Assembly: GCA_014729505.1 (NCBI GenBank)
Contig: WJJS01000013.1
Span: 8,457 to 72,456, forward strand
Length of the DNA: 64,000 bases
DNA from: Candidatus Woesearchaeota archaeon
Lineage (GTDB): Archaea; Nanobdellota; Nanobdellia; Woesearchaeales; ARS49
Direction: 5' to 3'
Both the position numbers and the translations under genes were made by a program. This document shows positions 16,772 to 61,690 of the stretch, piece by piece; position 1 is the stretch's first letter; each line of letters begins with the position of its first letter. The notes below the pieces were generated by a model, which was not told where the DNA came from, made no database searches, and worked only from the letters and a program-made list of their open reading frames with translations.

Positions 16772-17035
16772 ATGAAAGGAGTTATCGCCAATTTTCGGGG
16801 AAGTAGACGGAGAAAACGTGGAGACTACATGCTCATCGTTATCGATGGCATTAGTACACGAGAAAAAGCACAAGCACTCGAAGGAAAACCAGTGACATGG
16901 ACTAGTGCTGGAAAGAACAAAACAGCCATTTCGGGCAAAGTAACAGGCGCACACGGCAACAAGGGCCTTGTAAAAGCGCAATTTGAGCGAGGACTGCCAG
17001 GCCAAAGTCTCGGACAAGAAGTGAGCATCGAATAA
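16772..17035 (+). CDS. rpl35ae: ribosomal protein L35Ae (eL33)
   Basis: GKVTGAHGNKGLVKAQFERGLPGQSLGQEV matches the L35Ae signature. TATA tttataaa at 16740-16747, about 28 bp upstream of the chosen ATG. Confidence 0.85.
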   Translation: MKGVIANFRGSRRRKRGDYMLIVIDGISTREKAQALEGKPVTWTSAGKNKTAISGKVTGAHGNKGLVKAQFERGLPGQSLGQEVSIE

Positions 17036-17076
17036 TTCTTCTCTCTTCAGACAAAGTCAGTAATTTCTAATTGGAG

Positions 17077-17574
17077 CTATCTTAAGAAAGCCGGAAGAGC
17101 CGGGAGAATCAAATTCCAAATATAGGGCGACGCAGCTACCAGTCCGCCAACAAAAAACGTGTGAAACCAGGTTTCAGACAAACCACTGATATTTGCCTGA
17201 GCCTTAGTCGCCCGACTCACCGCGTGCACTTTGATTGCCGTAATCACACCAATAATAATACGAATACCTAGCACACTGCTAATCACGGGAACAGTCTTTA
17301 GCGCAGGAATAAGACCCAACACAAACTCTACATTAAATACAGCAAAAGTAGCAACAAGTGCATAAATAAACGCATGAGCGGCATGACCAAATTTGTGCTG
17401 TGGCACAGCTACGTCCTTCATAAGCGTAATTGCTTCATACAAACCAATAATAAGACCGCAAACAATAGCAGACTTCAACTGCAACTCAGGACTGGCCGAT
17501 TTAGCTGCGGTTCGCTGAGCAAACACAATAGGAACAATCACCAAATAAAGCAGCCACCGCAGATGTTTCATCAT
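17077..17574 (-). CDS. hypothetical integral membrane protein
   Basis: 165 aa with signal/TM N-terminus and 4-5 hydrophobic helices. Confidence 0.5.
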   Translation of the reverse strand: MMKHLRWLLYLVIVPIVFAQRTAAKSASPELQLKSAIVCGLIIGLYEAITLMKDVAVPQHKFGHAAHAFIYALVATFAVFNVEFVLGLIPALKTVPVISSVLGIRIIIGVITAIKVHAVSRATKAQANISGLSETWFHTFFVGGLVAASPYIWNLILPALPAFLR

Positions 17575-17616
17575 AACCTCTTTTTATCACTGCATGGTTC
17601 TGCGATTATATAAATC

Positions 17617-18486
17617 TTATGCGGATTCCACATACAAGCGAGAAATTTCCCGTTCCCGTCGCGAAGAAAAATACGCTTCCTGTGCCGCTTCAAAATACGA
17701 TATCGCTTCATCAGGCTGTTCATGAACCGCATGAAATCTCGCAAACCATTCCAGTAGTGCTGATCTACGCACACCAACAGCACGATTCAAGTGACGCTGC
17801 ATAAACGTTACTGCACGTTCCTTATCTCGCAGAGCATACGTATCAGCAACAGCACAAATACTGCCCATGTCACGCAACGACGACGCACCAAGAGTATAAC
17901 GACGCGCACATGATTGATGAAAATGGTCAATAAAAGAATAGTGCTCAGTGGCAAACTCCTCAATAACAACACGAGGCATTTCACGACCATCGAGCGCGCG
18001 ATGCAAACGTTCATGATACCTATTATTTACTTTATTACGAAACCACCCATGAGCACCACTGTACTCCGGGGGAGGATCATGAAGCACTGTATCACTACTT
18101 GCCAGCAAACGATACCCAAAAGGTGAAAGAACCGCGTACTGACGCGTTTTTGGCAACTTCTCACACCAACTATTAGTTACAGCATATTCTGGCGGCAGTT
18201 GATCACAGTCTACGGGCAAACAATACTTGTGCTGCCCATCAAACAAGTGAACATCACCATCCTCTCTGCACAAGCGCAGCTGAAAGACTTCCTTATATGA
18301 CGGTTGCCACGTCATACCCTGTTCATCTGGGAAAAAAACCTGGTGCTGCTCATCTGCAGCAAGTACACACCATTCAGATTCAATAATGCCAATCATCTTC
18401 TTCCTCCACCGCAGGAGAGCGCAGTGCGCGACGATACTCTTGACGAACATGTCTGCGAATACCTCCCGCACGTTCATAGGCTTCAT
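17617..18486 (-). CDS. hypothetical protein (GC-rich, R-rich; helical-repeat-like C-terminus)
   Basis: 289 aa in a local high-GC stretch (about 58%) unlike the neighbours; no known motif. The start may be the internal MIGIIESEW. Confidence 0.45.
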   Translation of the reverse strand: MKPMNVREVFADMFVKSIVAHCALLRWRKKMIGIIESEWCVLAADEQHQVFFPDEQGMTWQPSYKEVFQLRLCREDGDVHLFDGQHKYCLPVDCDQLPPEYAVTNSWCEKLPKTRQYAVLSPFGYRLLASSDTVLHDPPPEYSGAHGWFRNKVNNRYHERLHRALDGREMPRVVIEEFATEHYSFIDHFHQSCARRYTLGASSLRDMGSICAVADTYALRDKERAVTFMQRHLNRAVGVRRSALLEWFARFHAVHEQPDEAISYFEAAQEAYFSSRREREISRLYVESA

Positions 18487-18688
18487 CCAACTCCTCCATT
18501 GTCATACACTCCAAACGCTGCTCAATCGCATCAAAATCCCGTTGTGTCTTGATTCTGCGACGCTCAATGGAATACTCCTGCAGTATCCGATCGTGAAGAC
18601 GAGGTACAGAAAAACAACACGAGATAACACCCACAGCAATAGCAGCATATAGTACCACTCGCGGCCGTTCATAGTCGTAAATTGCCAT
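18380..18688 (-). CDS. small membrane-anchored protein (GC-rich islet)
   Basis: 102 aa; one N-terminal TM (VVLYAAIAVGVISCCF) then a charged R/E-rich tail; same GC-rich composition as the overlapping downstream gene. Confidence 0.4.
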   Translation of the reverse strand: MAIYDYERPRVVLYAAIAVGVISCCFSVPRLHDRILQEYSIERRRIKTQRDFDAIEQRLECMTMEELDEAYERAGGIRRHVRQEYRRALRSPAVEEEDDWHY

Positions 18689-18877
18689 ACTCCTCCTGTG
18701 TTTTGAGCCTTAAAGAACTTTTTTTCCATCATCTGCCATCACTTGCAAAGAAAGCGAAACATGCAACGATCGCAGCGAAGATTATTCGACAAAGAACACC
18801 ATAACCGAAAATCCTGCGACCAGTCTGCAAAACATTTATATACGTCACTATCGCCTTAGTCATTAAAGAGGTGCAAC

Positions 18878-19936
18878 ATGCGACGATTGTTCAACTACAG
18901 CCTACTCACGGTGTTATTTTTACCTGCAGCTTATGCATCAAATCCTGCAGTTGATCGTGTTTTAACCTTTATTCGCGATATCTTCACATCAATCTTCAAT
19001 CCAAGTGCAGAAGGCCTTGGCATTTTTCTAAAATTCCTCATTATTGTTACCACATTTGGCATCGTCTACGAACTGCTGCCAAGCGACTGGAAAAAAGGAG
19101 TGCGCGGCGTTATTGCAGGAGGACTCGCTCTTGGCGCAGGACTCGCCATCCCAACAAGTCTTGCACTAACATCAGGCACACTGCTTGGCGCCATCGTCGT
19201 CGCAGTCATTTTCCTTATACCCTTCGCACTCTTATCCTTAGCAACATATCACGGTATGAACTATGTAGACACGAACTGGAAATATCCGGCCTTTGCACTA
19301 ATGTGGCTGGTCTATTTCACCATACTCGTGTACTTCCTGGCACATTGGGGGCAACTGCTTCAAGCATTCGCATGGGTCTTTTTTGTCGTACTCATCCTTG
19401 CCATCATCTCGCCAATCATCGTACTTGTCCTCATAGGTGTCGCCATTCTCGGCGGCGAAACACGAGAAGGAACGTCATGGAAAAACCTCATGAAAAACAT
19501 CTCACGCAATGACGTCAAAAACAAAGCAACAGATGCCAACAAACATCTGGGACGCGCACAAGCATTACTGCGGGCAGTACCAAAAACCAAGAGCGTCGAA
19601 GCAAAACATGCCAAAATACGCGAAGCTCTATCAGCATTGCGCGCAAGCAAGAACTCTGTAAACCTTATCGCGGCACAAGCAGCAAAACTCTTAGCCGATA
19701 AAGAAATCGCAGATACCACAAAAAAAGACGCCGTGCGAGACGCGCAAGACCTAGTAGGAGAACTCAACGCACTCATGTTCGACCTGCATCCACTGCTCGA
19801 TGAAGAGAAAGGCGATACCATCGATACCTATCTCAAGGATAACGATTACCATGAAAAGGATAAATCAAAGAATCCGATCGCGTTTTTCATGGATCGGATC
19901 AGCATAGTGTCACAAATCACCCGTCAGGGCGATTAG
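18878..19936 (+). CDS. polytopic membrane protein with signal peptide and soluble helical C-terminal domain (paralog 1)
   Basis: Signal peptide (LLTVLFLPAAYAS), about 6 TM segments, then a K/A-rich helical cytoplasmic or extracellular domain. TATA-like tttatata about 40 bp upstream. Confidence 0.6.
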   Translation: MRRLFNYSLLTVLFLPAAYASNPAVDRVLTFIRDIFTSIFNPSAEGLGIFLKFLIIVTTFGIVYELLPSDWKKGVRGVIAGGLALGAGLAIPTSLALTSGTLLGAIVVAVIFLIPFALLSLATYHGMNYVDTNWKYPAFALMWLVYFTILVYFLAHWGQLLQAFAWVFFVVLILAIISPIIVLVLIGVAILGGETREGTSWKNLMKNISRNDVKNKATDANKHLGRAQALLRAVPKTKSVEAKHAKIREALSALRASKNSVNLIAAQAAKLLADKEIADTTKKDAVRDAQDLVGELNALMFDLHPLLDEEKGDTIDTYLKDNDYHEKDKSKNPIAFFMDRISIVSQITRQGD

Positions 19937-19983
19937 GCGCAAACATTAATAAATATCACATTATTACAAAGGCTCGAGGTGCA

Positions 19984-21144
19984 ATGATTATGAAAAAGAG
20001 GAACCTATTATCATTCGGATTCTTAATTACAATTTTTTTGGCCAGTATGGTCTATGCGCAAAGCCCAGTGGATGTTATTATTAGCATCTTTGCAGGGATT
20101 GGTCGCGCATTAAGCGGGATCGGCAATGCGCTCTTTGGCAGTCTAGATACGCAAGCAGGAGTCATCGGACTCTTACAATTTATAGCGTGGCTCTTAATGG
20201 CAGTCGTGACCTATGAACTCTTACGATTTGTCAATCTAAGCAAAGGCGTACGCATCATCATTGGTGCACTCGTCTCACTAGGTCTTGTACTCGTCATACC
20301 AGGAACACTCATCTTGACACTGTTTGCACAGTTCGGCGCACTAGTAACGCTTTTTGTGCTCGTCATCTTTGGAGCAGTACTCACCTTAGCAACAAGCTGG
20401 CTCAAACCAATAGACAGCTGGCAGAAACTGCTCATCGTCTGTCTCGTCTGGGGTAGCTTTTTGTGGATCATGTGGAATCTGTTCCTCGGCATCAACACCT
20501 CAAATGCTATTCCAGGAGAACTCGCACAATGGCCCATGGTCGTCTTTACCATTTATGGCGTAGGTGTTCTTGCATGGCTCATCTTGAGCGTGCTGTTTTC
20601 AGGCGGACAAACAGTTGCAGAAGGAAAAACATTCAAAGCCATAAAAAAAGCTGCAAGCAAAAAATGGGAATCAGCAGTGCTATCAAAAGTAGGTCGCGAA
20701 ACAGAACGAGTAGCATCATCACTAGACAAACATTACAACGAACTCAAATCGAAAGGAGCAACATGGGATGCAAACGCGCTCAAAGATAATTTTTGTCAAC
20801 CAGTAGAACTCGAACTGGCAAAGATTTCTTCACTTCTCAACGTCGAAGTAAGCAAAATGGATGCGGTCTCAGGAAAACCCCATCAAACATTAGTGGACTA
20901 TATCAAAAACAATGTGATAAAATTTATTGAAGCAACAGGAAATCCTACCATCGGAGGATTCCACCTCAAGCACGGAGGACTAGAACCATGGCTCAAGGAA
21001 GGAGGATGGTTGCACAGTAATTGGGAGACTGGCGATAATGTCAAGTCAGACCTTGCAACGTACTGCACGGCAGAATTAGGGCCTGCTCTTGCCACCTTCC
21101 ACGACATGCTCTACAAAGTCAATAAAGATCTTCCCAACCTATAA
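19984..21144 (+). CDS. polytopic membrane protein with signal peptide and soluble C-terminal domain (paralog 2)
   Basis: Same architecture as 18878-19936 (signal peptide FLASMVYAQSP, about 6 TM, soluble C-terminal domain); similar size. Confidence 0.6.
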   Translation: MIMKKRNLLSFGFLITIFLASMVYAQSPVDVIISIFAGIGRALSGIGNALFGSLDTQAGVIGLLQFIAWLLMAVVTYELLRFVNLSKGVRIIIGALVSLGLVLVIPGTLILTLFAQFGALVTLFVLVIFGAVLTLATSWLKPIDSWQKLLIVCLVWGSFLWIMWNLFLGINTSNAIPGELAQWPMVVFTIYGVGVLAWLILSVLFSGGQTVAEGKTFKAIKKAASKKWESAVLSKVGRETERVASSLDKHYNELKSKGATWDANALKDNFCQPVELELAKISSLLNVEVSKMDAVSGKPHQTLVDYIKNNVIKFIEATGNPTIGGFHLKHGGLEPWLKEGGWLHSNWETGDNVKSDLATYCTAELGPALATFHDMLYKVNKDLPNL

Positions 21145-22142
21145 TGGCTTTCCAACGATTTGTCCGGATGCGCGCAGAACTCTCGGTACTCTACAATAAA
21201 ATAGACGGGCCGAAAGTCAAAACAACAAGCGACGTAGACGATTTAGAAAAGAAATTCATCCCTCTGGCCGCCGAGCGTGTACAAACATTTCTTAAACACG
21301 ACGGTAAAACAAGACTGCACGTTATCCAACAAGAATATAACGAGCTAGGCGTGAAAAATCTCGACACTGTCAACAAAAGCGTGTTTCGCGCACCAAGTGC
21401 AACAATGCCCCAACTGCTCGAAGCAAGCAAACATGTCAAAGTCGCTACTATCGATAAAGAAATCGTACGACAAGAAGAGAAAAAAGCAGAAGCACAACGA
21501 ACAATCGACGAAGTCAAGAATTGGATCACAGATAACTACGGCGCGGTAGCAGGAGCTGCAGACGCAGCCAAAGCAGAACGGGCGACAAAACGAGCAGAAG
21601 AAGACGAAGCTCTTGAAGCAGTCACAGAAAAAAAAGCAGAACTACAAGCACTGAGTGGCGCAAACGCACTAGCAAAAGAAATATTCTTGCGTAGTCAAGC
21701 AGGCATGCCCAACCCACAAATACGCAGCGAACTCATCAGCGAAGGTAATGCAGAAGCAGACGTAGACGCAGCATTTGCACTTACCGATCCACTCATGATG
21801 GCATTGAGTGCACGACTTGATACGTGGAAAGAAAAAAACACTGCGAAAAAAGATGCAGAAGCACAGTACCAAGAACTCAAAAGTCAGATGCGCAAAGGCG
21901 TCAAAGCAAAAGAGAAACGCAAAGCAGCAGAAGAACAACTAGACGAACTACAAAAAAATCGCGTACAAATTATCACTCTAGGACTCGATCTTCAAGAACT
22001 CTGGCGCTTGCACACGCAGATAGTGAGTATCGACTTGACAGGTACGTACGACGAACAACAACTCAAACTCGAAATACTACACTTCAAAGCGACGATCTAC
22101 CATCTCACACACCGCGTTCTCACACCGCTTATCGAAGCTTAG
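21144..22142 (+). CDS. hypothetical alpha-helical/coiled-coil protein
   Basis: 332 aa; ATG overlaps the stop of the preceding gene (taATGg), suggesting translational coupling; E/K/A-rich helical regions. Confidence 0.5.
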   Translation: MAFQRFVRMRAELSVLYNKIDGPKVKTTSDVDDLEKKFIPLAAERVQTFLKHDGKTRLHVIQQEYNELGVKNLDTVNKSVFRAPSATMPQLLEASKHVKVATIDKEIVRQEEKKAEAQRTIDEVKNWITDNYGAVAGAADAAKAERATKRAEEDEALEAVTEKKAELQALSGANALAKEIFLRSQAGMPNPQIRSELISEGNAEADVDAAFALTDPLMMALSARLDTWKEKNTAKKDAEAQYQELKSQMRKGVKAKEKRKAAEEQLDELQKNRVQIITLGLDLQELWRLHTQIVSIDLTGTYDEQQLKLEILHFKATIYHLTHRVLTPLIEA

Positions 22143-23548
22143 TAAAACCTGGCAATTCTTGTCAGTTTTCGCACAACATCCTGACGTTCTTCAGTACTTA
22201 AAGGCAAATCCAAAAGACATTCATAACAGGAACGGGCTCCTACAGCATCCGGACGATCCTGCTGGAGATACGCTTCGGCCATCCATTCAAGAGAACGACG
22301 CTGGAACGTCTCGCTGGCTTGAGAGTTTATACGAGACAAGAACGGAATCGCAAACGGAGCGCGAAACCCTGCCTTGTTCGAAAACACTTCTAAGTCATTC
22401 TCAATAATACCTCGCCAACCCGCATCAGCAGCACGCCAAACGTCTGCATAAATACGCTGCGCTTTCTCCCGACTCTCAGGAGTACCAAGATCAAGCAAGG
22501 AACGCGCATACGTGATCTTTGCAGTCATATCCGGTAAGTCAAGCGTAGCAAATCGGCCAGCAGCTGTCGACGCATCGCCATTCGCGTATGCGTTATACGC
22601 GCGCTTAAGCCAAAAATTCAAAACACTCGGTTCAGGCAAACGAGACCAGCGAGTCTGTCCACGAGGTTGAGGACGTCTAGGCAAAGTCGCCCTTGCAGCA
22701 GAGCCGCCTCCAGACATACCTGCAAGTCCGCCCCACACCTGTCTATACATATCAGTTAAATCAGTCATTGCACTTCCTCCACCACTTGGCATGGCGCCGG
22801 CGGCTCCAGCAGCAGGCACACTACCAGCTCCAGTCGAGCCACTAGGTGCGGGCGAAGCCAGCCCCCCACGTTCAGCAACATAGCCGGCCAAACGGCTCAG
22901 CTCGTCACGTGTTAATCCTAATTGTTCGCGCGCTGTTTCAAGATCTTCAGTGGCGCGATCACGTTCACGTTCAGCAAACGCATAATTCGTCTCGAGTTGT
23001 TCGCGATTACGCTGTTCATGCATCAAATCAATTTCAAGATCAACAACATTGGCTCTTTCATCACTTAACTCTTGTTCGACCTCTTCAATACGGCGTTCGT
23101 AATCTGCAATCTGACGATCAAGATAACGCACTTCAACTAACGCGTCGACAAGATCTCCGACAAGATCGTGAACATACTGACGAGCCTCACCAAGATCTCT
23201 TCGATTGCGCTCATCAACCGTTAACCACGCATCACGCTCATCACGACGATCAGCACGATCATCAGCTAACGCATCCATCCATGCATCACGCTCATCACGA
23301 TGATTCGCATCAGCAAGACGACGAGCAGCATTACGGTCAGCATACAAACGACGACGTTCAAGATCACGATCAGTATAAAACTGCCTTCGTTCATCAGCAC
23401 GATCATCAACCCACGCATCACGCTCATCACGACGATCAGCACGCTCATCACGACGATCACGCAACACACGAACAAGCGCTTGAAAGAGCGCTCCCGCTGG
23501 CAAATTGCTATAATCAAATCCACTCATTCCTATATGTTGTCTAGCCAC
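22139..23548 (-). CDS. ORFan protein: N-terminal RDERDAW tandem repeats, coiled coil, Gly/Ala/Ser linker, helical-repeat C-terminal domain (GC-rich island gene E)
   Basis: 469 aa. About 26-aa repeats (DRRDERDAW.DD.AD) encoded by three copies of the about 27-nt motif (g)catcacgctcatcacga(c/t)ga within 23225-23445; GC about 60%. Confidence 0.55.
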   Translation of the reverse strand: MARQHIGMSGFDYSNLPAGALFQALVRVLRDRRDERADRRDERDAWVDDRADERRQFYTDRDLERRRLYADRNAARRLADANHRDERDAWMDALADDRADRRDERDAWLTVDERNRRDLGEARQYVHDLVGDLVDALVEVRYLDRQIADYERRIEEVEQELSDERANVVDLEIDLMHEQRNREQLETNYAFAERERDRATEDLETAREQLGLTRDELSRLAGYVAERGGLASPAPSGSTGAGSVPAAGAAGAMPSGGGSAMTDLTDMYRQVWGGLAGMSGGGSAARATLPRRPQPRGQTRWSRLPEPSVLNFWLKRAYNAYANGDASTAAGRFATLDLPDMTAKITYARSLLDLGTPESREKAQRIYADVWRAADAGWRGIIENDLEVFSNKAGFRAPFAIPFLSRINSQASETFQRRSLEWMAEAYLQQDRPDAVGARSCYECLLDLPLSTEERQDVVRKLTRIARFY

Positions 23549-23567
23549 TGTCGTTACTTATTGTTGT

Positions 23568-24671
23568 TTATAGATCGTCAAAGTCGTAATCACTCGGGTC
23601 CGGCACTCCGCCAAACATATTATAGACTTCATGAGCCTGTTCACAAAAACCGTCAAGAACCGTCCTCATTTCTTCAGTTCCCAAACTTCGTTGGAAGCCG
23701 CGATACTGCGGACTGCGACGAAACGCTGCCAAACGAGCAGCATCAACACGCCGAGCAAGTTCTCGCTGCGCATCAGTTTGTGAATACGAAGAGGTCGTTA
23801 ACGGATCCGCAGCAGCATCAGGAAGATCAGCAGGAACTCTGCTGTCACGCTCAAAAGCTGCAAGATCTTCATCAGCAACATAAATGTCTGCCACCTTTGC
23901 AATACGATGCCAATCTTGCTGCATATTCGTACCATATTGTGCCATCACACCAAGAATGGCCATTCTACGCTGCAAAGAGCTTATCTCTGACTGTTGGTCT
24001 TCAATAATTTGATACAATTCGCCTGCTCGTCGATCAACACGCTTGACAAAGTCATGCGTTCGATAACCCCGAGGGCCAATCTGTGAAGGTCCGTCTTCAC
24101 TCTTATCATCAGGATAGCGAGGCGCATCACCGTTAGCATCAGGTCGCATATACTCGTGCTCACCAACACTAGTATCAGTCATGGTATGAGAATCTGAAAG
24201 ATCTGGGTTGCCAGGTTCTTCATGCGCTGCTTCAATAGCCATACGATGGACATTCGTATTTCTTGGAAACACAAACATGCGTCGCACCTGATCCAAAAAG
24301 TGATTTTCCATCAAAAAATTCTGCAAAGTGGTCCGTCCATAGTCTGAACGAAGCATATGACGAAAACGATTAAAATAATCGCCCGCAGCAGGTGATTCTC
24401 CAGCCCGATGAGCTTCATAACCGCGAACAACTTCTCGCCAGCAAATAGGACCTGTCTCATCGCGCACCGTGTTAGCGCCCATGCGATTACTGTACTGATC
24501 ATAATTCCAGATGACAAGATCAATTAACAATTTTGCATCACGGGCTTCATCAACACTTCCACCATGAAAACCAAAACCATTCATAGCAACGTGGCGTCGT
24601 CGACGCGGAAAATCTTCTCTTTGTTCACTCATAATAACCCCTCCTAGGTTCTTCACAAGACGAGTAACCAA
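23568..24671 (-). CDS. ORFan protein (GC-rich island gene D)
   Basis: 367 aa, no recognisable motif, acidic C-terminus (…DYDFDDL); co-directional and closely spaced with neighbours. Confidence 0.55.
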   Translation of the reverse strand: MVTRLVKNLGGVIMSEQREDFPRRRRHVAMNGFGFHGGSVDEARDAKLLIDLVIWNYDQYSNRMGANTVRDETGPICWREVVRGYEAHRAGESPAAGDYFNRFRHMLRSDYGRTTLQNFLMENHFLDQVRRMFVFPRNTNVHRMAIEAAHEEPGNPDLSDSHTMTDTSVGEHEYMRPDANGDAPRYPDDKSEDGPSQIGPRGYRTHDFVKRVDRRAGELYQIIEDQQSEISSLQRRMAILGVMAQYGTNMQQDWHRIAKVADIYVADEDLAAFERDSRVPADLPDAAADPLTTSSYSQTDAQRELARRVDAARLAAFRRSPQYRGFQRSLGTEEMRTVLDGFCEQAHEVYNMFGGVPDPSDYDFDDL

Positions 24672-24727
24672 TTTCCTCTTTTTAAATCTTTCTATTATTC
24701 ACTACTCCAGAGTGTTAACCGTTGGCT

Positions 24728-25420
24728 CTATTCTCGTTCGACAAAACCATACTTTTCAGGACAGGGACGCAACTGCAGCACCTGATACATACTCACTGCC
24801 TGACCACACACTATCTCAGCTACCAGACGCATTTCTTCAGTATGCAAACCCTCAAGAAAATCATCAAAATCCGCAGAAGCACCAAACGCCGCCACACGAT
24901 CAATGCTCAACGCAGGAGCACACTCGCGCTGCTCATCAGTCATAGCACGCAAAGAGGTTGTCTGATACCGATCAACGCCCTGACGACGACGATCATCTGC
25001 GTCATCAAACACCGCGGCATCAGTTTCAGGAATAACAAGACCAACACGCTCTGCAAAAGAGGCAAAGTCAGAAAGCAAATGCAAACCATACTGTGCCACT
25101 CTAGCATACGCCTCAGGAACAGCAGGCCCCGCAGCGCCATACTCCACACTCGACGGATCTTGCCCGCGAGATTCCCAGACCCTTCTCACGACCGGATGCA
25201 ACCCGTCAAAATCAACAGAACCCATAGGCCTACCCAAACGCGGCGCAACAAACAACTCGTACAATGCACGACCCTCGCGCGTCTTCAGTGTCGGAGGCTC
25301 GTCAACGCCCAAACGCGAGCCAATAGCATTAGAAAGAATCACGACAAGATCTGACCAGGACCTTGCAGCAAGACGCAACCGCGCTTCGTCCTCATCCAAA
25401 TCACGTTGTCGACGATTCAT
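24728..25420 (-). CDS. ORFan protein (GC-rich island gene C)
   Basis: 230 aa; stop/start overlap with the upstream gene (25417-25420) suggests operon coupling. Confidence 0.55.
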   Translation of the reverse strand: MNRRQRDLDEDEARLRLAARSWSDLVVILSNAIGSRLGVDEPPTLKTREGRALYELFVAPRLGRPMGSVDFDGLHPVVRRVWESRGQDPSSVEYGAAGPAVPEAYARVAQYGLHLLSDFASFAERVGLVIPETDAAVFDDADDRRRQGVDRYQTTSLRAMTDEQRECAPALSIDRVAAFGASADFDDFLEGLHTEEMRLVAEIVCGQAVSMYQVLQLRPCPEKYGFVERE

Positions 25421-25941
25421 TCTTCACCCTTCTTATACAGCCCGCGAATAGCATCTCCAAGCGTGTCAGGCGCTTCACGATCAAAGTCACGCATCAAGCG
25501 ATCGTAATTATCCGCCTTAGGCTGCAATCGCGCAATGATCCGTTCTGCTTTTTCTAGACGAGAGCGTAAATTCGTTTGCTCGCCACGAACTCTTTCTGTC
25601 ATGCGAGAAAAATACGCCGACGCATTGGCAGGAACAAAGGGCTTTTGTGCACGATCTGGAATAATACCTACTTCCTTTGCCGTCTGTTCAAGAGCACTAC
25701 CCATACCCACCATATAATCAAACCATTGACGCACTCCTGAATCAGCAATATTGCTAACGATTGTCGCGTACGCACCATCTGGCGCATCCTTTGATTCAAT
25801 AACATCCCGACAAAGCGTCTGGGCTCTTGGATCTGCAGACAACCATAACTCTCCGAGCGCTCGATATTGTTTTAGCACTCCTTCAGCATGGCGCTTTGCC
25901 TGCAATGCTCGTTGTACTTCATCATCTGATTTGTTTGCCAT
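25417..25941 (-). CDS. ORFan protein with C-terminal LGDxIxxLxxxGEE motif (GC-rich island gene B)
   Basis: 174 aa; C-terminus ...PDTLGDAIRGLYKKGEE parallels the C-terminus of the upstream 556-aa protein. Confidence 0.55.
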   Translation of the reverse strand: MANKSDDEVQRALQAKRHAEGVLKQYRALGELWLSADPRAQTLCRDVIESKDAPDGAYATIVSNIADSGVRQWFDYMVGMGSALEQTAKEVGIIPDRAQKPFVPANASAYFSRMTERVRGEQTNLRSRLEKAERIIARLQPKADNYDRLMRDFDREAPDTLGDAIRGLYKKGEE

Positions 25942-25943
25942 TT

Positions 25944-27614
25944 CTACTCCTCCCCTCTTCCTAATAATTTGTTAATCACATCTCCCAAGGGATCTTCGAT
26001 GGGCTCTTGGAGGCCCTTTATCAAAGTTCCGAAAGAATCACGCAATTGCTCTGCAGCCTCAACATGTTGTGCCATTTGCTGCAAACGCTCATCGAGCTGT
26101 GCCTGCCAGGGAGGCACTTCTTCCGATCCTGCATTCGCAGGATACTGCACTACACGTTGCTTTTCAGACATCATCGGACCGCCCAGGCGAGACCGAATAT
26201 CCTGGAGCAATGCCACCACAAGAGCCGTATCCGGCGAGATAGCAGGTTGAATATCTTGTAAGCGTTGCTCCACAACGTCAAGACGACGAGATAAGGCACG
26301 TACGTCATCAGGTGCTTTCACACTCGGAGCATCGCAGGCATCACTCGAATCGCCACGTTGATCTGCAGTGCGCTTTTTAGCACTGTCAGACTGCTGACGA
26401 TCAAGTGAAGCACGCAACGCATCCATTTCGTCATGCAAAATAGAGACCGCTTCATCATTACGTTCTTGGCGAACCTGTTGTGTACGCAAATACGCAACGA
26501 TATGTTCTTGAGCCCGCGCCGCTTGTTGTGACGCCACACGCATCTCCTGCATCATCTCATCTCTTAACATTTCAAAATCGTTATACGTTCTACTCTCCTT
26601 TTCGGCATCTCTTGCACGACCAGCATGGTAGCGCACCAACGCGTGCAAGCGCTCAATATGCACACTCTGCTCATCAATACGGGCCAAAAGATCAGCAATC
26701 AAACCGCCCTTCTCCTCAGACTCGAGATGAGCAACTGCTTCTTCAATAGACGCTAAACGCACAGCACGTTGTTTGGTCTGCTCAATACTCTCTGTTAGTA
26801 CAGCCACAACTCGCTCATTATATCCTTCATGTATTTTTCGCGACGTCTCTTCAAGAGTAGCAATATGTTCTTGAGATAAACGACCGTGTTCCTTTAAAAT
26901 CGAGGCCAATCGCTGCAAACCCTCAAACGCATAGCGTATACGAGGGCCTGCCTGATCCGGGTCGAGAATCGTTTTTAACACCTCGCCTGTTAACGGCTTT
27001 CCCAACTGTCCATGCGTCTGCAAATAAGTGACTGCAGACTCCACAATCACGTCCAGCACAGTATTAAAAATCCTGCGCGTTCGAGGATCAAGACTCTCTG
27101 CCAACTCCACATACCACCGCATGCATCGATTATCAGAAAATTTTTTCGGTGAGCGAGACTTGAGCGCTGCGCGAGCCGCCAAACAATATCGAAGCGGCAC
27201 GGTATCAGAACCGTAAAGAACAGTCGAGACTTTTCGCATACTTTCTCGAAGAGAACAATCCTGTTCAATACTTGCAGCCCTCCTGCAGAACTCATCAAAA
27301 GCAGCACGACCCCAGTCTGATTTCAAACGTTCGCGAGTCAAACGATAATACTCTCTGGCAGGTCCCTTCTTATCAAGTCTCACTAATCGATAGCCGTCAA
27401 GAGCAGACTGAGCTCGCTTGGACGCTTTTGAAAATTGGCGCTGCAAGTACAATGCATCCTGACGCGCGTCATGCTCTACAGGCACATCCTGCAATATGCG
27501 CGCCAAGGGTTCTTCATACTTCTGCTCTCCTCGACCAGCAATGTCCTTACTCATTTCCCGTTGCCATTTGGTTCCCATCTTAAATCTGCCGTTCACAAGA
27601 CGATACTGCAGCAC
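25944..27614 (-). CDS. ORFan long coiled-coil protein with C-terminal LGDxIxxLxxxGEE motif (GC-rich island gene A)
   Basis: 556 aa, extensive coiled-coil (E/R/Q/A-rich heptads), C-terminus ...EDPLGDVINKLLGRGEE. First gene of the five-gene minus-strand block. Confidence 0.55.
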   Translation of the reverse strand: MLQYRLVNGRFKMGTKWQREMSKDIAGRGEQKYEEPLARILQDVPVEHDARQDALYLQRQFSKASKRAQSALDGYRLVRLDKKGPAREYYRLTRERLKSDWGRAAFDEFCRRAASIEQDCSLRESMRKVSTVLYGSDTVPLRYCLAARAALKSRSPKKFSDNRCMRWYVELAESLDPRTRRIFNTVLDVIVESAVTYLQTHGQLGKPLTGEVLKTILDPDQAGPRIRYAFEGLQRLASILKEHGRLSQEHIATLEETSRKIHEGYNERVVAVLTESIEQTKQRAVRLASIEEAVAHLESEEKGGLIADLLARIDEQSVHIERLHALVRYHAGRARDAEKESRTYNDFEMLRDEMMQEMRVASQQAARAQEHIVAYLRTQQVRQERNDEAVSILHDEMDALRASLDRQQSDSAKKRTADQRGDSSDACDAPSVKAPDDVRALSRRLDVVEQRLQDIQPAISPDTALVVALLQDIRSRLGGPMMSEKQRVVQYPANAGSEEVPPWQAQLDERLQQMAQHVEAAEQLRDSFGTLIKGLQEPIEDPLGDVINKLLGRGEE

Positions 27615-28088
27615 TTTTGCTAGTGCCTAAGCAAGGTACAAGGCCCTTCACTCAGCATTCTGCACCATCCTGCGCGCAACGAGCAAAAACTCTGCGCCTT
27701 ACAGGAACTCTCACTTTTTCCATATTTTTTCACTATTGCAAATTAATGTGCGAATTTCTTTTTATACTTTTTGTTCTTCTATATTCTTTCCTCTATTTTC
27801 TCTTGTATTGCCCTTCTTAGTTGTAATGTTTTGTATATTATGTTACATATATTCTACAATAACCCATTTGTTTCAAATCCATTTCTCCAGACGAACCAAT
27901 CTTGCCAATTCCCGTCGGGAAACGGAAACACACTACAAGAACACCCCAGAATTCGGCAGAGGAGAACGAGCACATCGCATCATCTGGTTCGCGAAAAAAA
28001 CACTTCAAACACCAAACAAAATAGGCCTTTAGTCAGGTCATTTCAGAGCCTTTACTGCGCAAAATCTTTAATCAATAGAGGCTGTCAG

Positions 28089-28240
28089 GCATAATGCCAG
28101 AATCACTGAGAAATCGACAACAACTCCGTTTTTTCGTCTGAAATCTCGCCCTCGCAAGATTCTGAGATAACTTACTTTGTCGATATTTTCCCAGAAATTT
28201 TGTTATAATGCCGTCAGCGCAGGGATAATGCCAGAATCAC
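28089..28240 (+). repeat. two copies of 17-bp direct repeat (g)ataatgccagaatcac plus a partial third copy (ttataatgcc) in the AT-rich spacer
   Basis: Copies at 28089-28106 and 28224-28240; a shorter ataatgcc at 28203-28210. Each copy carries an ATG (MPES...) opening short ORFs of 15 and 44 codons. Confidence 0.6.
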
Positions 28241-28500
28241 CCATTTTTTGTGTTATCGATGCTCTGCCCGCATGGGAGAACGTGTCGGGATTTTTTACGA
28301 CAATTAAAACTTATGCTCGTCAGATTTTGGTTTTGAGTATAGAAAACCCTTTGGTCGCATAAAACGCCGCTCCAAGAGGCCCTATTGATGAAATTCGCCA
28401 AAAAAACCGCGCTAACCACATTACGATCCAAAAATAGTATGCAATCTTTAATCAAATCGCAATTATTATTTTCCTTTGACGAATTAAAACTCTTTGATCA

Positions 28501-29058
28501 ATGATCATTGATTTCTTTGTCGCGATAATGAGAAAGCAGTGTCGGGAAAATCAAAAATTATTTATAAACTCGTTGCTTTGCATCCTCATGAATATCCAAC
28601 TCGAACCACGAGAACCAAGCACACACGGCGTCGACGAATTAGCCACCACGCTACTTGCACGCTTCGGACTCCTACCACGCAAACGCGACAGTGCAGCAAC
28701 AATGCACCAGCTACTCCTAGAACTCACCGAAAAAAAGAAAGAAGCGATAAAGCACAAACAGCCGGAATTAGGCATCCTTACCGTCGAAGAAATGGGCAAA
28801 CACGCGGGCATTGCACGGCAAACGATGTACGATTATTTATCCCGCTGGTTATCTCTGCATATCCTGAAAAAATCAAGCTTCGTGCAAGGCGGCAAAGTCA
28901 TCATCGGCTACGAGCTTAACGGCACCTCACTTGAAAGCGCATTTAGAAAAGCAGAAACAGTGATAAAAAATCACGTCGAACAAAGCTTCAAAATCCTCGA
29001 CACCATGCAAAAGGAAATCAAACGAGAAAAACTCAAGCGCGCTACATCCAGCGAGTAA
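28501..29058 (+). CDS. HTH transcriptional regulator
   Basis: HTH-like segment LTVEEMGKHAGIARQTMYDYLSRW; the real start may be an internal Met (MNIQLEP...). Confidence 0.55.
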   Translation: MIIDFFVAIMRKQCRENQKLFINSLLCILMNIQLEPREPSTHGVDELATTLLARFGLLPRKRDSAATMHQLLLELTEKKKEAIKHKQPELGILTVEEMGKHAGIARQTMYDYLSRWLSLHILKKSSFVQGGKVIIGYELNGTSLESAFRKAETVIKNHVEQSFKILDTMQKEIKREKLKRATSSE

Positions 29059-29563
29059 GCGGCACTTCAAGACCAACAATATTCTTTTGAATCTGCAATT
29101 GGCGAAAACGAGGATGCAGAGCAATACCAATCTTTCCCTTCTTTACCTTCTTTACAAAAGGAACGCCCTTCTCGACGAGACGCGCCACATAACTGCCCAC
29201 CACGCTTGTCGACGTGTTCAAATGCGTTGCGATCTGCGCATACGTGACATACGTAAATGATTCAGTAAGCGACAAAATAGCCCAAAATACTGCCTTTTCT
29301 CGAGTGTTTAACGGCGAGACTGCAAAGGATTCCCTTCTTGTTTTTCCCGATACAACGAGAAACAGTTCATCAATACGGTCTTGAAGATGATTGATACGAT
29401 TATCTAGTTCGCACAAAAAATCAAAGTTCGTCTGCACTTCTGTCGTGTTTTCGTTAATCGCGGTTCTATGTTCGTCAATTTCTCGTCGCATAGAGTGCAA
29501 AATATCTTCAAATATTTTAGCCCCCGATCTAGACAATAACTCTTTTTCTCGAATACATACCAC
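29042..29563 (-). CDS. coiled-coil plus winged-HTH regulator (paralog of 29585-30307)
   Basis: N-terminal coiled coil; C-terminal HTH (TYAQIATHLNTSTSVVGSYVARLVEKGVPF). Confidence 0.55.
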   Translation of the reverse strand: MVCIREKELLSRSGAKIFEDILHSMRREIDEHRTAINENTTEVQTNFDFLCELDNRINHLQDRIDELFLVVSGKTRRESFAVSPLNTREKAVFWAILSLTESFTYVTYAQIATHLNTSTSVVGSYVARLVEKGVPFVKKVKKGKIGIALHPRFRQLQIQKNIVGLEVPLTRWM

Positions 29564-29584: not shown

Positions 29585-30307
29585 CTAATCTTCAGTGAGC
29601 CTGCGACCTTTAAATACTTTTCTGTTCGATGAAAAAACACGTTCCCTTCCCGACGAGACAACATCGATCAGACCCTCTTTGACCAATTCTTCGAGCAAGC
29701 GATAAAACGAACTCCTACTGCACAATTTCTGTTCATCAACTACAATCTCGCGCAAACTCGTACCGGAAATGCGCTCGTACTTTGCGAGCAACGATAACAG
29801 TGTTTTTTTTATGTACTCCTTGCTCTTTCGCGAAACGTTTTGAACAATCTTTTGCTGCAGATTACTCGTACGAGGACGTTCGCTCACTTTTGGCACCTCA
29901 ACAGGCACGATTTTAGGTCTGCGCGCCTCTTCAAGCAAGGTCTCCATACGCGCCATGCGCCTCTCGAATGCCTCAATACGCTCCAGTTGGCGATCAACAG
30001 GATACTCACTACGCAGAATATGTATCACTTCTGCGCGACCCAGAGAGTCCCGTTGAGCCTTGACCACCCTATTAATAGTACTTCGATGAGCATTGTTTTG
30101 CTCACGTAAGTACTGCACCCATCGAAACAAGTTCTGATTATCCTTTTTTGCCTGGGCCAATTCCTTTTGCACCCCATCCATATCTGTGCGAACTTTGGCA
30201 AACGAAGACTTCACTTGAGCGTGCAAGTCATCCACTTTTTTTTGCGTCTTCCAAAAGACCATCGAGTAATAAGAAGTGGCAGTGCTATAAAATTGTTTCG
30301 AACACAA
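29585..30307 (-). CDS. coiled-coil plus winged-HTH regulator
   Basis: N-terminal coiled coil; C-terminal wHTH (ISGTSLREIVVDEQKLCSRSSFYRLLEELVKEGLI); the palindromic element lies immediately upstream. Confidence 0.55.
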   Translation of the reverse strand: MCSKQFYSTATSYYSMVFWKTQKKVDDLHAQVKSSFAKVRTDMDGVQKELAQAKKDNQNLFRWVQYLREQNNAHRSTINRVVKAQRDSLGRAEVIHILRSEYPVDRQLERIEAFERRMARMETLLEEARRPKIVPVEVPKVSERPRTSNLQQKIVQNVSRKSKEYIKKTLLSLLAKYERISGTSLREIVVDEQKLCSRSSFYRLLEELVKEGLIDVVSSGRERVFSSNRKVFKGRRLTED

Positions 30308-30312
30308 AAAAA

Positions 30313-30526
30313 CCCAGTCCCAGTCCTAAAATAGGACTGAGACAGTCCTATAATGAGACTGAGGCGGGACTGAGACTGAGATCGAGAGACCGCCGCACAA
30401 CAGAACTAGAATCTATTTCCCGTCGTGAACGGTAATTTCCATCCAAAAATCACGTAACAAGAGAGACGCGAGTGAGACAGTCCCAAGACAATCCCAGGAC
30501 AGTCCTAGGACTGAGACTGGGACTAA
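30313..30526. repeat. MITE-like element: about 215 bp bounded by imperfect about 30-bp inverted repeats containing perfect palindromes
   Basis: Left end cccagtcccagtcctaaaataggactgagac; right end gtcctaggactgagactgggact, its near reverse complement. Perfect palindromes cagtcctaaaataggactg (30321-30339) and cagtcctaggactg (30500-30513). Motif ggactgagac repeated three times. Confidence 0.6.
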
Positions 30527-30570
30527 GAAAAATGCAAGAAATTATATAAGAAAATAATATCCTTAAGCAC

Positions 30571-31257
30571 ATGCTTGCAGGAATTACTCCAAAAACACTC
30601 GCCATAGCATTGTCCAAATTACAAGGATTCTCTGATCCAAAAGTTTCAGTAGAACAGTACTGCACAGATCCCACTATCGCAGCAGAAGTGATATATCGGG
30701 CAAGCACATTGGGAGATGTCGCAGAACGAGTCATTACTGATCTTGGAGCAGGAACAGGACTACTCGGACTTGGATGTGCACTAGCAGGAGCCAAGGAAGT
30801 GAGTCTTGTAGAACAAGACCGAGAAGCCCTAGAAATCGCCGCACAAAATGTCCTACAGGTCAAAGAATGGATGAACAGTGAGAAACACCACCCAGTACAG
30901 ATCCACACTATCTGCGCCAATATCACAGAATTCACAGGTAAAAGTGAGACTATCATTATGAATCCGCCATTTGGGACAAAACAGAAACATGCGGACAGAC
31001 CTTTTTTTCTCAAAGCATTCGAGCTGGCACCCGTGATTTACGTGTTTGCAAAGAGCTCCACGCGTGAATTCGTGCGAAAAGTGAGTCTTGATCACGGATA
31101 TTTGATGAGCCACAAGTGGCGCTATACGCGATTTCCCCTTCCCCGCAGTTACGGATTCCACAAAAAACCGCGAGCATGGACCGATGTGACCGTGTTTCGG
31201 TTAGAAAGTGAGTCATGTGCTCAAAAACGTAAGGCAAACCGCAAGGACAAATCATAA
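30571..31257 (+). CDS. SAM-dependent N6-adenine RNA methyltransferase (METTL5/COG2263-like)
   Basis: Motif I DLGAGTGLLGLG and motif IV NPPFG. Confidence 0.8.
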   Translation: MLAGITPKTLAIALSKLQGFSDPKVSVEQYCTDPTIAAEVIYRASTLGDVAERVITDLGAGTGLLGLGCALAGAKEVSLVEQDREALEIAAQNVLQVKEWMNSEKHHPVQIHTICANITEFTGKSETIIMNPPFGTKQKHADRPFFLKAFELAPVIYVFAKSSTREFVRKVSLDHGYLMSHKWRYTRFPLPRSYGFHKKPRAWTDVTVFRLESESCAQKRKANRKDKS

Positions 31258-59496: not shown

Positions 59497-60711
59497 TTAG
59501 GAGAGCAAACTCTCATAATCCTCAAGAACAATACGATCAACCTGCTCAAGATTCCTCACCAGAGAGAGCCGACCATCACCTAGCTCAGTACAACGCTTAG
59601 CAAAAGACATTGCCTTCTTATCAAGACCAATACCAACAATACTCACCGTAATACCTGCATCCTTTGCCAAGGAAATAGCACGCAATGTCTCCGTTTCAGG
59701 CGCATCACCGGCAGTGGGTAAAGCATCAGTCAACACAATAAGATGTTTGGTTACGCCTTCAAGAGGAAAAAGACGGGCAGCACGCTCGAGCATTACAGCA
59801 AAGTCAGTCTGTTTTGAGGCGCGCACACGAATAATCCTTTGAAGCAACACACTAAAATCACTCGTTGGAGCAACAGCAGTATGCACATCCTTGCTAAACA
59901 CAATCAAACCTACCTTATCCTGTTGCGACAAGGCCTTAAACGCCAAAGCCATACCAGCACGTTTTGCCACAGCAATCTTTTTACCCTTCATACTCGCAGA
60001 AGCATCAACAGCATACACGATATAGATCGTTCCCAACTTGTGACGCGTATGAGTACGCAAATCCTCTTTATGCAAACTCTTATGACTGCGCCGTACTGCC
60101 ATACGCACACTCTCGCGCACAGCAAGATCACGGTACGAATCACCCTTCTTTGTAGGCCGTGTTTCATGACGATCACCATACTGCGAAGATTCCTTAAGGA
60201 GTTTTTCACCAAACATGCCACGAGGAAGAACACGTTCCAATTCACGAGTATACATCACGAGCGCGGCAAGCTGAATACCCTGATCAGTAAACTGACCAAA
60301 ATCATCAATAATCTTCTTTCGACGCATCTGCTCAACAGCAGCGTCCATATTCTTCTTCATCTCCTTTTGAAACTCAGGAATACGAACATTCTTCTCAACA
60401 TACGATTCATCAAAACCAGTAAGATAACGAATAATTTTTGGACCAAGAATCTTCTTAGCCATCTGAAAATTATTAACAAGCTGTTCAAAAGAAAGATCAG
60501 GCGTAAAAGAATGAATATTACGATTCAAAGCCTCCTCAATTACTGCACCCTCATCAATAGTCTTCTTATCACCTTCAAGAACAGAATGCATCAAGGCCTC
60601 ATCAAGACTCGTCTTCAGCTTCCCTTCCGCCTCTTCAGCCTTAGTAAGTTGTTTTACCTCGACCTCAAGGTCAAAGGCCATCACCACCGTCAAGACCCAT
60701 ATCACGAGCAA
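59497..60711 (-). CDS. von Willebrand factor A (VWA) domain protein, partner of the upstream AAA+ ATPase
   Basis: MIDAS DASASM in IVYAVDASASMKG; C-terminal VWA fold; 41-nt overlap with the ATPase gene. Confidence 0.8.
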   Translation of the reverse strand: MLVIWVLTVVMAFDLEVEVKQLTKAEEAEGKLKTSLDEALMHSVLEGDKKTIDEGAVIEEALNRNIHSFTPDLSFEQLVNNFQMAKKILGPKIIRYLTGFDESYVEKNVRIPEFQKEMKKNMDAAVEQMRRKKIIDDFGQFTDQGIQLAALVMYTRELERVLPRGMFGEKLLKESSQYGDRHETRPTKKGDSYRDLAVRESVRMAVRRSHKSLHKEDLRTHTRHKLGTIYIVYAVDASASMKGKKIAVAKRAGMALAFKALSQQDKVGLIVFSKDVHTAVAPTSDFSVLLQRIIRVRASKQTDFAVMLERAARLFPLEGVTKHLIVLTDALPTAGDAPETETLRAISLAKDAGITVSIVGIGLDKKAMSFAKRCTELGDGRLSLVRNLEQVDRIVLEDYESLLS

Positions 60712-61690
60712 ATTTTTCCAGCTCTTGGGCGAGGAATTCCTTAGGCGTCTGCAGGTACTTGACAGAAGGTTTGAGTTCGATACGATGACTCAATACAGAA
60801 ATAATAGCCTCTTGCACTTCCTTCATAGACACCGTTGAAAGACCATGAAGAAACGCATTAGCCTGTGCACGTTCAAATAATCCAATCGATACACGCACAG
60901 AAGGCTTCTTTTGCACATCCTTATGCTCACGAATACGACGAACAAAAACAATTAACAAACGCAAAACCTTCTGCGGAAACTCAACATCCAAGGTCTTGCC
61001 CTTTTTTCTCACAATCTGCTCTTCTAAATCCTGACTGTCAGGATATGACATGTGCACCACATCAACGCGATCCATAAAAACAGCAGACAATTTCTCCGTT
61101 GCAGCAGCCTCTTCAGGATTCATCGTGCCAATAAACAAGAAATTCGTCGGAACCTCAACACGAAAACCGCTCAATGTAGCAGTTCCCTCCTCTAAGACCT
61201 GCAACAAACTATTCTGAATCTTTTCAGGAGCACGATTAACCTCATCAAAAAACAAAATACCATGATTAGCACGAAAAATTTTTCCAGGACTAAACGCTTC
61301 CGGCGATGAAGGACCAAACTTAAGAGCCATAATTGGATCAATATCTCCAAGCAAATCCTCAACAGTCAAATCAGGACTTCCCTGCACACGAACAAAACGC
61401 TCAGCACCAGGAATCCTTGCAGTCCTCGGTTGTTTTTTGCGACAAGCAGTACAGCGCGGTTGTTTTGGATCACAATGAAACTCGCAAGTAGACAAGGTTT
61501 TTGGAGGCAACAGCTTAGCAACGTTTTTTGCAAGCGTCGTCTTGCCAATGCCGGGAGCTCCAACAATCAAAAGATGACGATTCATCAAAAGCGCAGATTT
61601 AAGCTGAAACTTCGTACGATCCTGACCCAAAATATCAGTAAAAGGATCATCGCCAGTAAATTGCTTGGCAAAATCAAATTTCATTGCCAA
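60671..61690 (-). CDS. AAA+ ATPase (MoxR/ChlI-like) with Cys4 insertion
   Basis: Walker A GAPGIGKT, Walker B ILFFDEVNRA, GTMNPEE; CEFHCDPKQPRCTAC insertion between Walker A and B. Confidence 0.85.
   Translation of the reverse strand: MAMKFDFAKQFTGDDPFTDILGQDRTKFQLKSALLMNRHLLIVGAPGIGKTTLAKNVAKLLPPKTLSTCEFHCDPKQPRCTACRKKQPRTARIPGAERFVRVQGSPDLTVEDLLGDIDPIMALKFGPSSPEAFSPGKIFRANHGILFFDEVNRAPEKIQNSLLQVLEEGTATLSGFRVEVPTNFLFIGTMNPEEAAATEKLSAVFMDRVDVVHMSYPDSQDLEEQIVRKKGKTLDVEFPQKVLRLLIVFVRRIREHKDVQKKPSVRVSIGLFERAQANAFLHGLSTVSMKEVQEAIISVLSHRIELKPSVKYLQTPKEFLAQELEKFARDMGLDGGDGL

Follow-up and report, generated by a model that had tools for sequence, protein, structure and literature searches.

The DNA considered here, a stretch of 64,000 nucleotides from a DPANN archaeon (Candidatus Woesearchaeota) referred to throughout as the window, carries a compact repeat array of about 215 bp between two divergent leaderless promoters (Table 1). 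To the left of the array lies the gene for a winged helix-turn-helix (wHTH) protein, GF342_02640, which forms an operon with the gene for a second coiled-coil/HTH protein, GF342_02635; the gene for a third HTH protein is convergent on these two. To the right lies an operon encoding, in order, an MTS-type rRNA methyltransferase, RpoL, a protein of unknown function and undecaprenyl pyrophosphate (UPP) synthase, followed by L1/L10/L12. The 225-residue product read from the ATG at 30262 is 100% identical to the NCBI protein GF342_02640 (Candidatus Woesearchaeota metagenome-assembled genome), from which it follows that the intergenic region spans 30263-30570. A sequence-only reading of the same DNA had rightly placed the element in the divergent wHTH/methyltransferase region, but began the wHTH gene at 30307. 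The NCBI start of GF342_02635 gives a protein of 149 residues ending at 29491. No description of the element was found in the literature.

The array is composed of a short site with the core T-G-G/A-G-A-C/A-T, which in the window takes the form RGGACT or GAGACT. Twelve [AG][AG]GACT hexamers fall within 30316-30524, and every other 200-bp bin of the window holds three or fewer. Five successive sites of the left cluster (30322, 30333, 30344, 30355 and 30366) are exactly 11 bp apart, and the stretch between the two clusters is of ordinary base composition, not AT-rich. The decamer GGACTGAGAC occurs exactly three times in the window, at 30334, 30367 and 30508, as the sequence-only reading stated; with one mismatch allowed there are 7 matches versus 2.15 expected, a number reached in none of 100 shuffles. 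Five copies of CAGTCCTA/TAGGACTG lie inside the element, and 8 in the whole 64 kb versus 0.9 expected. The palindromes reported earlier were confirmed: CAGTCCTAGGACTG (30500-30513) is a perfect one of 14 bp, and CAGTCCTAAAATAGGACTG (30321-30339) is an inverted repeat with 8-bp arms around AAA.

The same reading had described terminal inverted repeats of about 30 bp. The resemblance between the ends is real, but they are only 71% complementary over 35 nt, and the look of terminal repeats arises because each end clusters the same hexamer (RGGACT/GAGACT) in both orientations. The two ends are at once direct and inverted repeats of each other, and can hardly be called distinct termini. On the left, flanking DNA ending in CACAAAAAAA meets CCCAGT, and on the right GGGACT meets AAGAAAAATG; a search for a target-site duplication at both ends found none matching, the flanks being A-rich DNA next to the transcription factor B recognition elements (BREs) of the two promoters. 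The element occupies the whole stretch from one core promoter to the other. A TATA box precedes the ATG of each flanking gene by 21-23 nt, so that both mRNAs are leaderless.

Table 1. Positions of the array, its promoters and the neighbouring genes in the window.
Feature	Position	Strand	Remarks
Third HTH protein	28501..29058	+	Convergent with the other two HTH genes; candidate palindrome binder
Second coiled-coil/HTH protein GF342_02635	29042..29563	-	Co-transcribed with the wHTH gene
wHTH gene GF342_02640	29585..30262	-	225 aa, N-terminal coiled coil and C-terminal winged helix; presumed array binder
wHTH TATA box (TTTTATA on minus strand)	30286..30292	-	23 nt before ATG; read from sequence
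Left site cluster	30313..30389		Sites in the next three rows
Left cluster, inverted sites	30316, 30322, 30344		AGTCCC, AGTCCT, AGTCCT
Left cluster, forward sites	30333, 30355, 30366, 30372		AGGACT, GAGACT, GGGACT, GAGACT
Left cluster, end	after 30372 site		Degenerate GAGATC and GAGAGA
Degenerate palindrome copy TTTCCCGTCGTGAACGG	30416..30432		Separates the two site clusters
Right site cluster	30463..30528		Ends 14 bp before the methyltransferase TATA box
Right cluster, 11-bp steps	30479, 30490, 30501		GAGACG and GAGACA first; then AGTCCC, AATCCC, AGTCCT at the positions given
Right cluster, 6-bp steps	30507, 30513, 30519		AGGACT, GAGACT, GGGACT
Methyltransferase-RpoL TATA box TTATATAA	30542..30549	+	21 nt before ATG 30571; read from sequence
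MTS-type (METTL5-like) methyltransferase	30571..31257	+	First gene of the divergent operon; Pfam MTS E = 2.8e-10
AAGTGAG copies in the methyltransferase open reading frame	30797, 30942, 31079, 31206	+

The array in other Woesearchaeota

Homologues of the wHTH protein are confined to Woesearchaeota/Nanoarchaeia assemblies (a few record titles are evidently mislabelled). A scan with one genome per species returned 144 relatives, and 80 loci were kept. Full-length matches to the wHTH protein in other species share only 27-38% identity, and in 71 of the 80 loci the densest 150-bp cluster of G[AG]GA[ACT]T, with up to 20 kb searched, lies 134-412 bp upstream of the wHTH orthologue. These clusters hold 3-14 sites, at least 5 in nearly all, versus a background of about 0.5; at 4 further loci the densest cluster is just downstream of the wHTH gene. 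Every locus found by exact-protein look-up likewise has TGGGACT/TGGGAAT/GAGACT arrays adjoining the wHTH gene. The top two places in an unbiased 6-mer count are taken by TGGGAC, enriched 143-fold and present in 73 of 78 loci, and GGGACT, enriched 132-fold.

The spacing of same-strand neighbours in the relatives is 11 bp in 173 cases, 10 in 82, 22 in 62 and 33 in 20, with tandem steps of 6 bp in 88; 77% of all array sites read away from the wHTH gene. Typically an inverted element (…GGACnGTCCCAGGAC…) is followed by modules of 3-5 direct sites, and whole arrays comprise 10-25 sites in several modules, up to four. The window element is a compact one-module version of this array: cluster, palindrome remnant, cluster. 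A strict three-site pattern was met in 22 of 92 loci, always upstream of the wHTH gene and within about 400 bp of it, except in L089 (about 600 bp). Secondary clusters are few and weak, 9 in the 1.27 Mb of relatives' loci, and the convincing ones, which bear the palindrome described below, all lie within 4 kb of the wHTH gene. A DNA-pattern scan of metagenomes was dominated by (CTGGGA)n-type microsatellites; among the matches listed, 7 of 120 adjoin wHTH homologues, and the scan is uninformative on copy number.

At 88 loci the gene across the array could be compared. An MTS-type methyltransferase stands there in 48 and an unrelated RsmE-type enzyme in 27, with RpoL next in 70; the array stays beside the wHTH gene although the flanking methyltransferase has been swapped. 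The array is lineage-wide, multi-module and helically phased, and is not a simple operator.

A second motif, the 15-bp palindrome TTTATCGACGATAAA, separates the site modules, with one to three copies per locus (for example in the upstream regions of L015, L025 and L030). Its position weight matrix derives from 69 CGWCG instances found in relatives, and in L006, the closest relative, CTTCGTCGTGAAAGG is present in three copies. The palindrome co-occurs with an orthologue of the third HTH protein (24 of 38 loci versus 2 of 33; Fisher P = 3e-7, not phylogeny-corrected).

When 63 loci of relatives are aligned on the wHTH start, the TATA box falls at -37 to -30 and is free of sites, and the nearest array site borders the BRE, at about -50; the window is arranged in the same way. 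Several clades have an extra site between the TATA box and the ATG of the wHTH gene. On the far side, the last array site is in many relatives directly followed by a conserved outward promoter, AAAAGGTTTAAATAGTAG, whose position in the window is that of the methyltransferase promoter. Mini-modules with both motifs are found directly upstream of RpoL in L085 and L090 and, more weakly, in L054 and L087.

Beyond the array a third motif appears. In 66 loci the 9-mer AAAAGTGAG, with the core AAGTGAG, is enriched 24-fold over the stretch from the array to RpoL (2.79 per kb versus 0.116) and is strictly strand-specific, with 289 forward and 2 reverse copies. It is present in non-coding DNA and in both unrelated methyltransferase open reading frames (ORFs), in different reading frames, and in L042, L085 and L087 it heads tandem units of 62-74 bp. 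The 4 copies in the window exceed the 0.32 or 0.82 expected under synonymous-codon nulls (P <= 0.0014), and the same test gave P < 0.06 in all 13 other loci tested. The dipeptides VS and SE, which the motif encodes, are about 4- to 6-fold overrepresented in the window methyltransferase. AAAAGTGAG may serve as an additional DNA-binding site or act as a signal at the RNA level in the operon transcript, and the array is part of a larger conserved multi-motif region.

Several observations were made in passing on array-like DNA. In L006 (887-1183) the deposited model of the wHTH protein, P0002 (302 aa), runs about 100 codons upstream through the repeat array; its N-terminus, ...GTGTVGFWPF...SQSQSRPGTGT, is a gene-calling artefact caused by the array. 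In L045, at about 757-830 within the MTS methyltransferase ORF (318-953), the S-adenosylmethionine-binding motif DLGTGTGIL is encoded as GGGACTGGGACTGGGATT, with a TTTTATCGTCGAGAAA stretch upstream of it; this mimic of an array module in coding sequence is either coincidence or another embedded motif. High-GC metagenome contigs (60-68% G+C) contain an unrelated recurrent element, GAGAATTCgCTGGGAATtGATGTGGGAATaaCCTGGGAATATGGGAATCGGACTGG, in which four TGGGAAT copies lie about 8-13 bp apart (L096, L101, L135, L141, L144, L154, L156, L157, L199 and L207). G-quadruplex formation would be possible in relatives' arrays such as GGGACTGGGACTGGGATTGGGACT, but nowhere in the window do four G-runs fall close enough together on one strand, and it was rejected as a conserved property.

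Candidate binder and rival explanations

In the AlphaFold (AF2) model of GF342_02640 (predicted local distance difference test, pLDDT, 82), helices lie within residues 2-114, and a disordered linker leads to a wHTH domain at 134-212. Foldseek neighbours of that domain are generic DNA-binding proteins, namely MarR, ArsR, PadR, F-93, RosR and, at rank 20, TubR. GF342_02640 has nothing above the Pfam gathering score and no relative by sequence in NCBIfam, PHROGs or PDB, and searches of the same four resources gave no family for any of the three HTH proteins. GF342_02635 gives weak matches to HTH_36/HTH_24, and its homologues are found in Woesearchaeota only. In 86 of 88 loci the wHTH gene has the second HTH gene as its neighbour, and an orthologue of the third HTH protein is detectable in 45 of 88. 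A viral or plasmid origin of the wHTH protein was considered and rejected: among 2.9 million viral contigs no relative was found, and the single DNA-pattern match there is a chance one.

Across 20 homologues of the wHTH protein the segment LREIVVDEQ.LCS[RK]S[ST]FYR hardly varies, the whole proteins being about 30% identical, and the recognition helix within it, LCS[RK]S[ST]FYR, is essentially invariant. This invariant helix matches the invariant core of the DNA motif, which supports the wHTH protein as the binder. A weak association between motif position 5 (A/C) and R/K in the helix (P = 0.015, n = 5 versus 33, not phylogeny-corrected) was not used.

A conserved motif, its helical phasing, its position at core promoters and its lineage-wide linkage to a gene with an unchanging DNA-reading helix are established for the locus, and together they favour a phased array of operator or iteron type. 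Such an array would probably be bound by the adjacent wHTH protein and control both the operon of that protein and the divergent operon by cooperative assembly, perhaps with the two neighbouring HTH proteins; comparative sequence evidence makes this the likelier account, short of a firm assignment. Linked by their coiled coils, copies of GF342_02640 would line up along one face of the DNA, site after site, in 11-bp steps. The resulting cooperative nucleoprotein complex would abut the BRE/TATA elements of the wHTH gene and of the methyltransferase-RpoL operon and set the transcription of both units, giving autoregulation and, with it, regulation of the divergent operon. A part may also fall to the two neighbouring HTH proteins, to one of them possibly at the palindrome. 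We infer that GF342_02640 is the binder and that it binds cooperatively, and the sign of regulation is likewise a matter of inference. That the element provides operator sites for neighbouring regulators was one of three suggestions of the sequence-only reading, and it is the one that the comparison with relatives favours, in a form more elaborate than a simple operator.

Several points weigh against this account. A secondary module in L013 is flanked by the ends of convergent genes and is remote from any promoter. Five loci have an inverted wHTH gene with the array downstream of it, so that the array cannot act on the wHTH promoter there. The array counts cover the 64-kb window and the 1.27 Mb of relatives' loci. 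The putative assignment of the binder rests on adjacency and co-conservation, and any of the three nearby HTH proteins, or a factor encoded elsewhere, could be the binder. Finally, 10-25 sites exceed the need of a simple repressor, and a structural role fits at least as well.

Such a structural role would be that of a centromere-like or chromosome-organising site, where the arrays, palindromes and AAAAGTGAG repeats dock three coiled-coil/HTH proteins that assemble into a large complex and transcription control is a side effect. The layout comes close to that of parC of plasmid R1 and also recalls the split tubC bound by TubR, itself a wHTH protein and a structural neighbour, as given above. 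The number of sites and modules and the module of L013 agree with it, as does the extension of AAAAGTGAG about 1 kb into coding DNA, under selection at the nucleotide level as parS-type sites can be. This explanation is nevertheless considered rather unlikely. No ParA, ParM, TubZ or SegA-type NTPase was found in the scanned window ORFs or the neighbours' gene lists, the array edges are precisely placed against two BRE/TATA elements, which fits transcriptional control, and the counts of copies have the scope already given. In its boldest form, in which the GGGAMT arrays, TTTATCGACGATAAA and directional AAAAGTGAG constitute one Woesearchaeota-specific chromosomal hub (centromere-like, chromosome-organising or an unconventional origin) served by an unrecognised coiled-coil/HTH trio and no bacterial-type partition ATPase, the idea is an outside possibility of similar weight.

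A binder from another locus, such as one that regulates the methyltransferase-RpoL-ribosomal-protein cluster globally, would reduce the adjacency of the wHTH gene to conserved gene order, and is judged unlikely. The array does lie between the wHTH gene and the methyltransferase-RpoL cluster, in 4 of the 5 inverted loci as well, and the mini-modules upstream of RpoL point the same way. Yet in the fifth inverted locus, L012, the methyltransferase-RpoL cluster has been lost and the array is kept beside the wHTH gene; the match between recognition helix and motif core also speaks for the local protein, and in many clades sites flank or overlap the wHTH gene's own TATA box and transcription start.

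A replication origin of iteron or origin recognition box (ORB) type, with the repeats as initiator sites beside an unwinding region, is very improbable. Skew and gene content led to its rejection, and to that of a replication terminus. Direct repeats, inverted repeats at the promoter of a winged-helix gene and, in L001/L017-type relatives, an AT-rich stretch of about 250 bp beyond the repeats recall iteron plasmids, and the dispersed 9-mers recall clusters of initiator boxes. Against this, the sign of GC skew is constant across the 64-kb window and the same on both flanks in 26 of 30 loci, including genomes at -0.2 to -0.4. The window has no AT-rich unwinding region, the array directly abutting the methyltransferase promoter, and AT-rich DNA is found only in some relatives. 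No Orc1/Cdc6, Rep or MCM-type initiator was detected in the window, where the sole AAA+ protein detected is a MoxR/Mg-chelatase-type ATPase (60671-61690), about 30 kb from the array.

A structured non-coding RNA (ncRNA), also raised by the sequence-only reading, or cruciform-forming DNA would place the function in the hairpins. The element is indeed far more stably folded than shuffled sequences on both strands (z = -5.2 and -7.9), and about half of the relatives' arrays fold at z < -3. Over 69 loci, however, fold z follows how direct and inverted copies of the motif are mixed (r = -0.75) and is near 0 where an array has direct repeats alone; the arrays lie upstream of both TATA boxes and are therefore not transcribed from either known promoter; and Rfam gave no match at gathering score, with two chance-level hairpin matches only (E = 0.19 and 0.69). 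This explanation was accordingly rejected, its chances being slight.

The first suggestion of that reading, a miniature inverted-repeat transposable element (MITE), has in its favour a small, non-coding, intergenic element with ends that look like inverted repeats, and is given virtually no credence: the window holds a single cluster with no flanking duplication and with ends made of the internal repeat unit, the wHTH protein has no relatives in viral contigs, no empty site was seen, and the presence of the array at the same position beside wHTH genes so diverged, in 71 of 80 species and with synteny across the order, is not what a mobile insertion would produce.

Elsewhere in the window three observations stand apart from the array. 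At about 27615-27775 on the minus strand, within a 900-bp gene-free stretch (27615-28500), a TATA-like AAAAGTATAAAAAG is followed by a block reading GCAATAGTGAAA...GGAAAAAGTGAGAGTTCC...CTTGCTTAGGCACTAG. Several of its short blocks recur in L001, L005 and L015 in the DNA that separates the array from the RsmE-type methyltransferase, and that DNA also has GTGCCTAA/TTAGGCAC stems. The block has no Rfam match and is possibly an undescribed conserved ncRNA. Across the window (1-64000), all 2-kb bins have a negative GC skew (-0.02 to -0.27) and almost all a positive AT skew, even though both strands carry genes; some related genomes have skews of -0.3 to -0.4. The whole window appears to lie on one replichore. 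From about 17000 to 27600 there are about ten ORFs (165-556 aa) without a Pfam match above gathering score, including a 556-aa coiled-coil protein (25944-27614). This run has a slightly higher G+C (0.46-0.50) than elsewhere in the window and is possibly an island, either acquired or specific to the lineage. A tRNA search of the window found none.

DPANN archaea are uncultivated, and their gene regulation and chromosome biology are almost unknown. The locus offers a pair of protein family and DNA motif that is found order-wide and is directly testable, with exact sites, phasing and promoter geometry, and it stands beside core transcription and translation genes (rRNA methyltransferase, RpoL and L1/L10/L12). 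Should the array prove regulatory, the wHTH protein may govern the information-processing cluster of these reduced genomes as a master regulator; should the array prove structural, it would be the first centromere-like locus to be put forward for DPANN. The element also illustrates that the look of a MITE can arise purely from a transcription-factor site present in both orientations.

Comparison with known systems

Ss-LrpB of Saccharolobus solfataricus binds cooperatively to regularly spaced sites in its own promoter, upstream of the BRE/TATA element; its sites are three 15-bp palindromic boxes about three turns apart. The arrays described here differ in their 10-25 sites of 7-8 bp, most of them direct repeats at one-turn intervals, and in the family of the protein encoded beside them.

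At iteron plasmid origins, such as those served by RepA of pPS10 and RepE of F, direct repeats adjoin the gene for a winged-helix protein, and inverted copies at its promoter serve autorepression. The present locus is alike in its repeats beside a winged-helix gene, in the inverted copies at the promoter and, in some relatives, in the AT-rich stretch. Plasmid iterons, however, are 17-22 bp long compared with sites of 7-8 bp here, where the skew does not switch, the window lacks an unwinding region and homology to Rep or Orc1 is absent.

The tubC-TubR system combines a wHTH protein with a split array of two kinds of iteron, on which the protein spreads and covers its own promoter (PMC6009700). 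Likeness to it lies in the wHTH protein, the split array, the two kinds of short motif and the place of TubR among the structural neighbours of the wHTH domain. Unlike that system, the locus has no TubZ gene, and TubR lacks the 115-residue N-terminal coiled coil and has no sequence similarity to the protein considered here.

In parC of plasmid R1 two sets of five 11-bp iterons flank the promoter of the operon for the binding protein, and binding is cooperative and autoregulatory (PMC2241845). In mode of action this system and tubC-TubR are the nearest analogues. The window shares with parC-ParR two clusters of short direct repeats at one-turn (11-bp) spacing, a central, presumably unbound segment, the association with an operon promoter and, as proposed here, cooperative and autoregulatory binding. 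The differences lie in the protein, ParR being a ribbon-helix-helix protein and the one here a coiled-coil wHTH protein; in the ParM motor, for which no counterpart NTPase gene was found here; in the conserved chromosomal rather than plasmid setting; and in the inverted sites, separate palindrome and, in relatives, up to four modules that Woesearchaeota arrays add. No partner NTPase having been found in the scanned window ORFs or the neighbours' Pfam lists, the locus does not qualify as a member of the partition family. What it does have in common with plasmid centromeres is iterated repeats phased at about one helical turn (10-11, 22 and 33 bp) at the promoter of the presumed binding protein, and with autoregulated operators, sites positioned against the presumed regulator's own core promoter.

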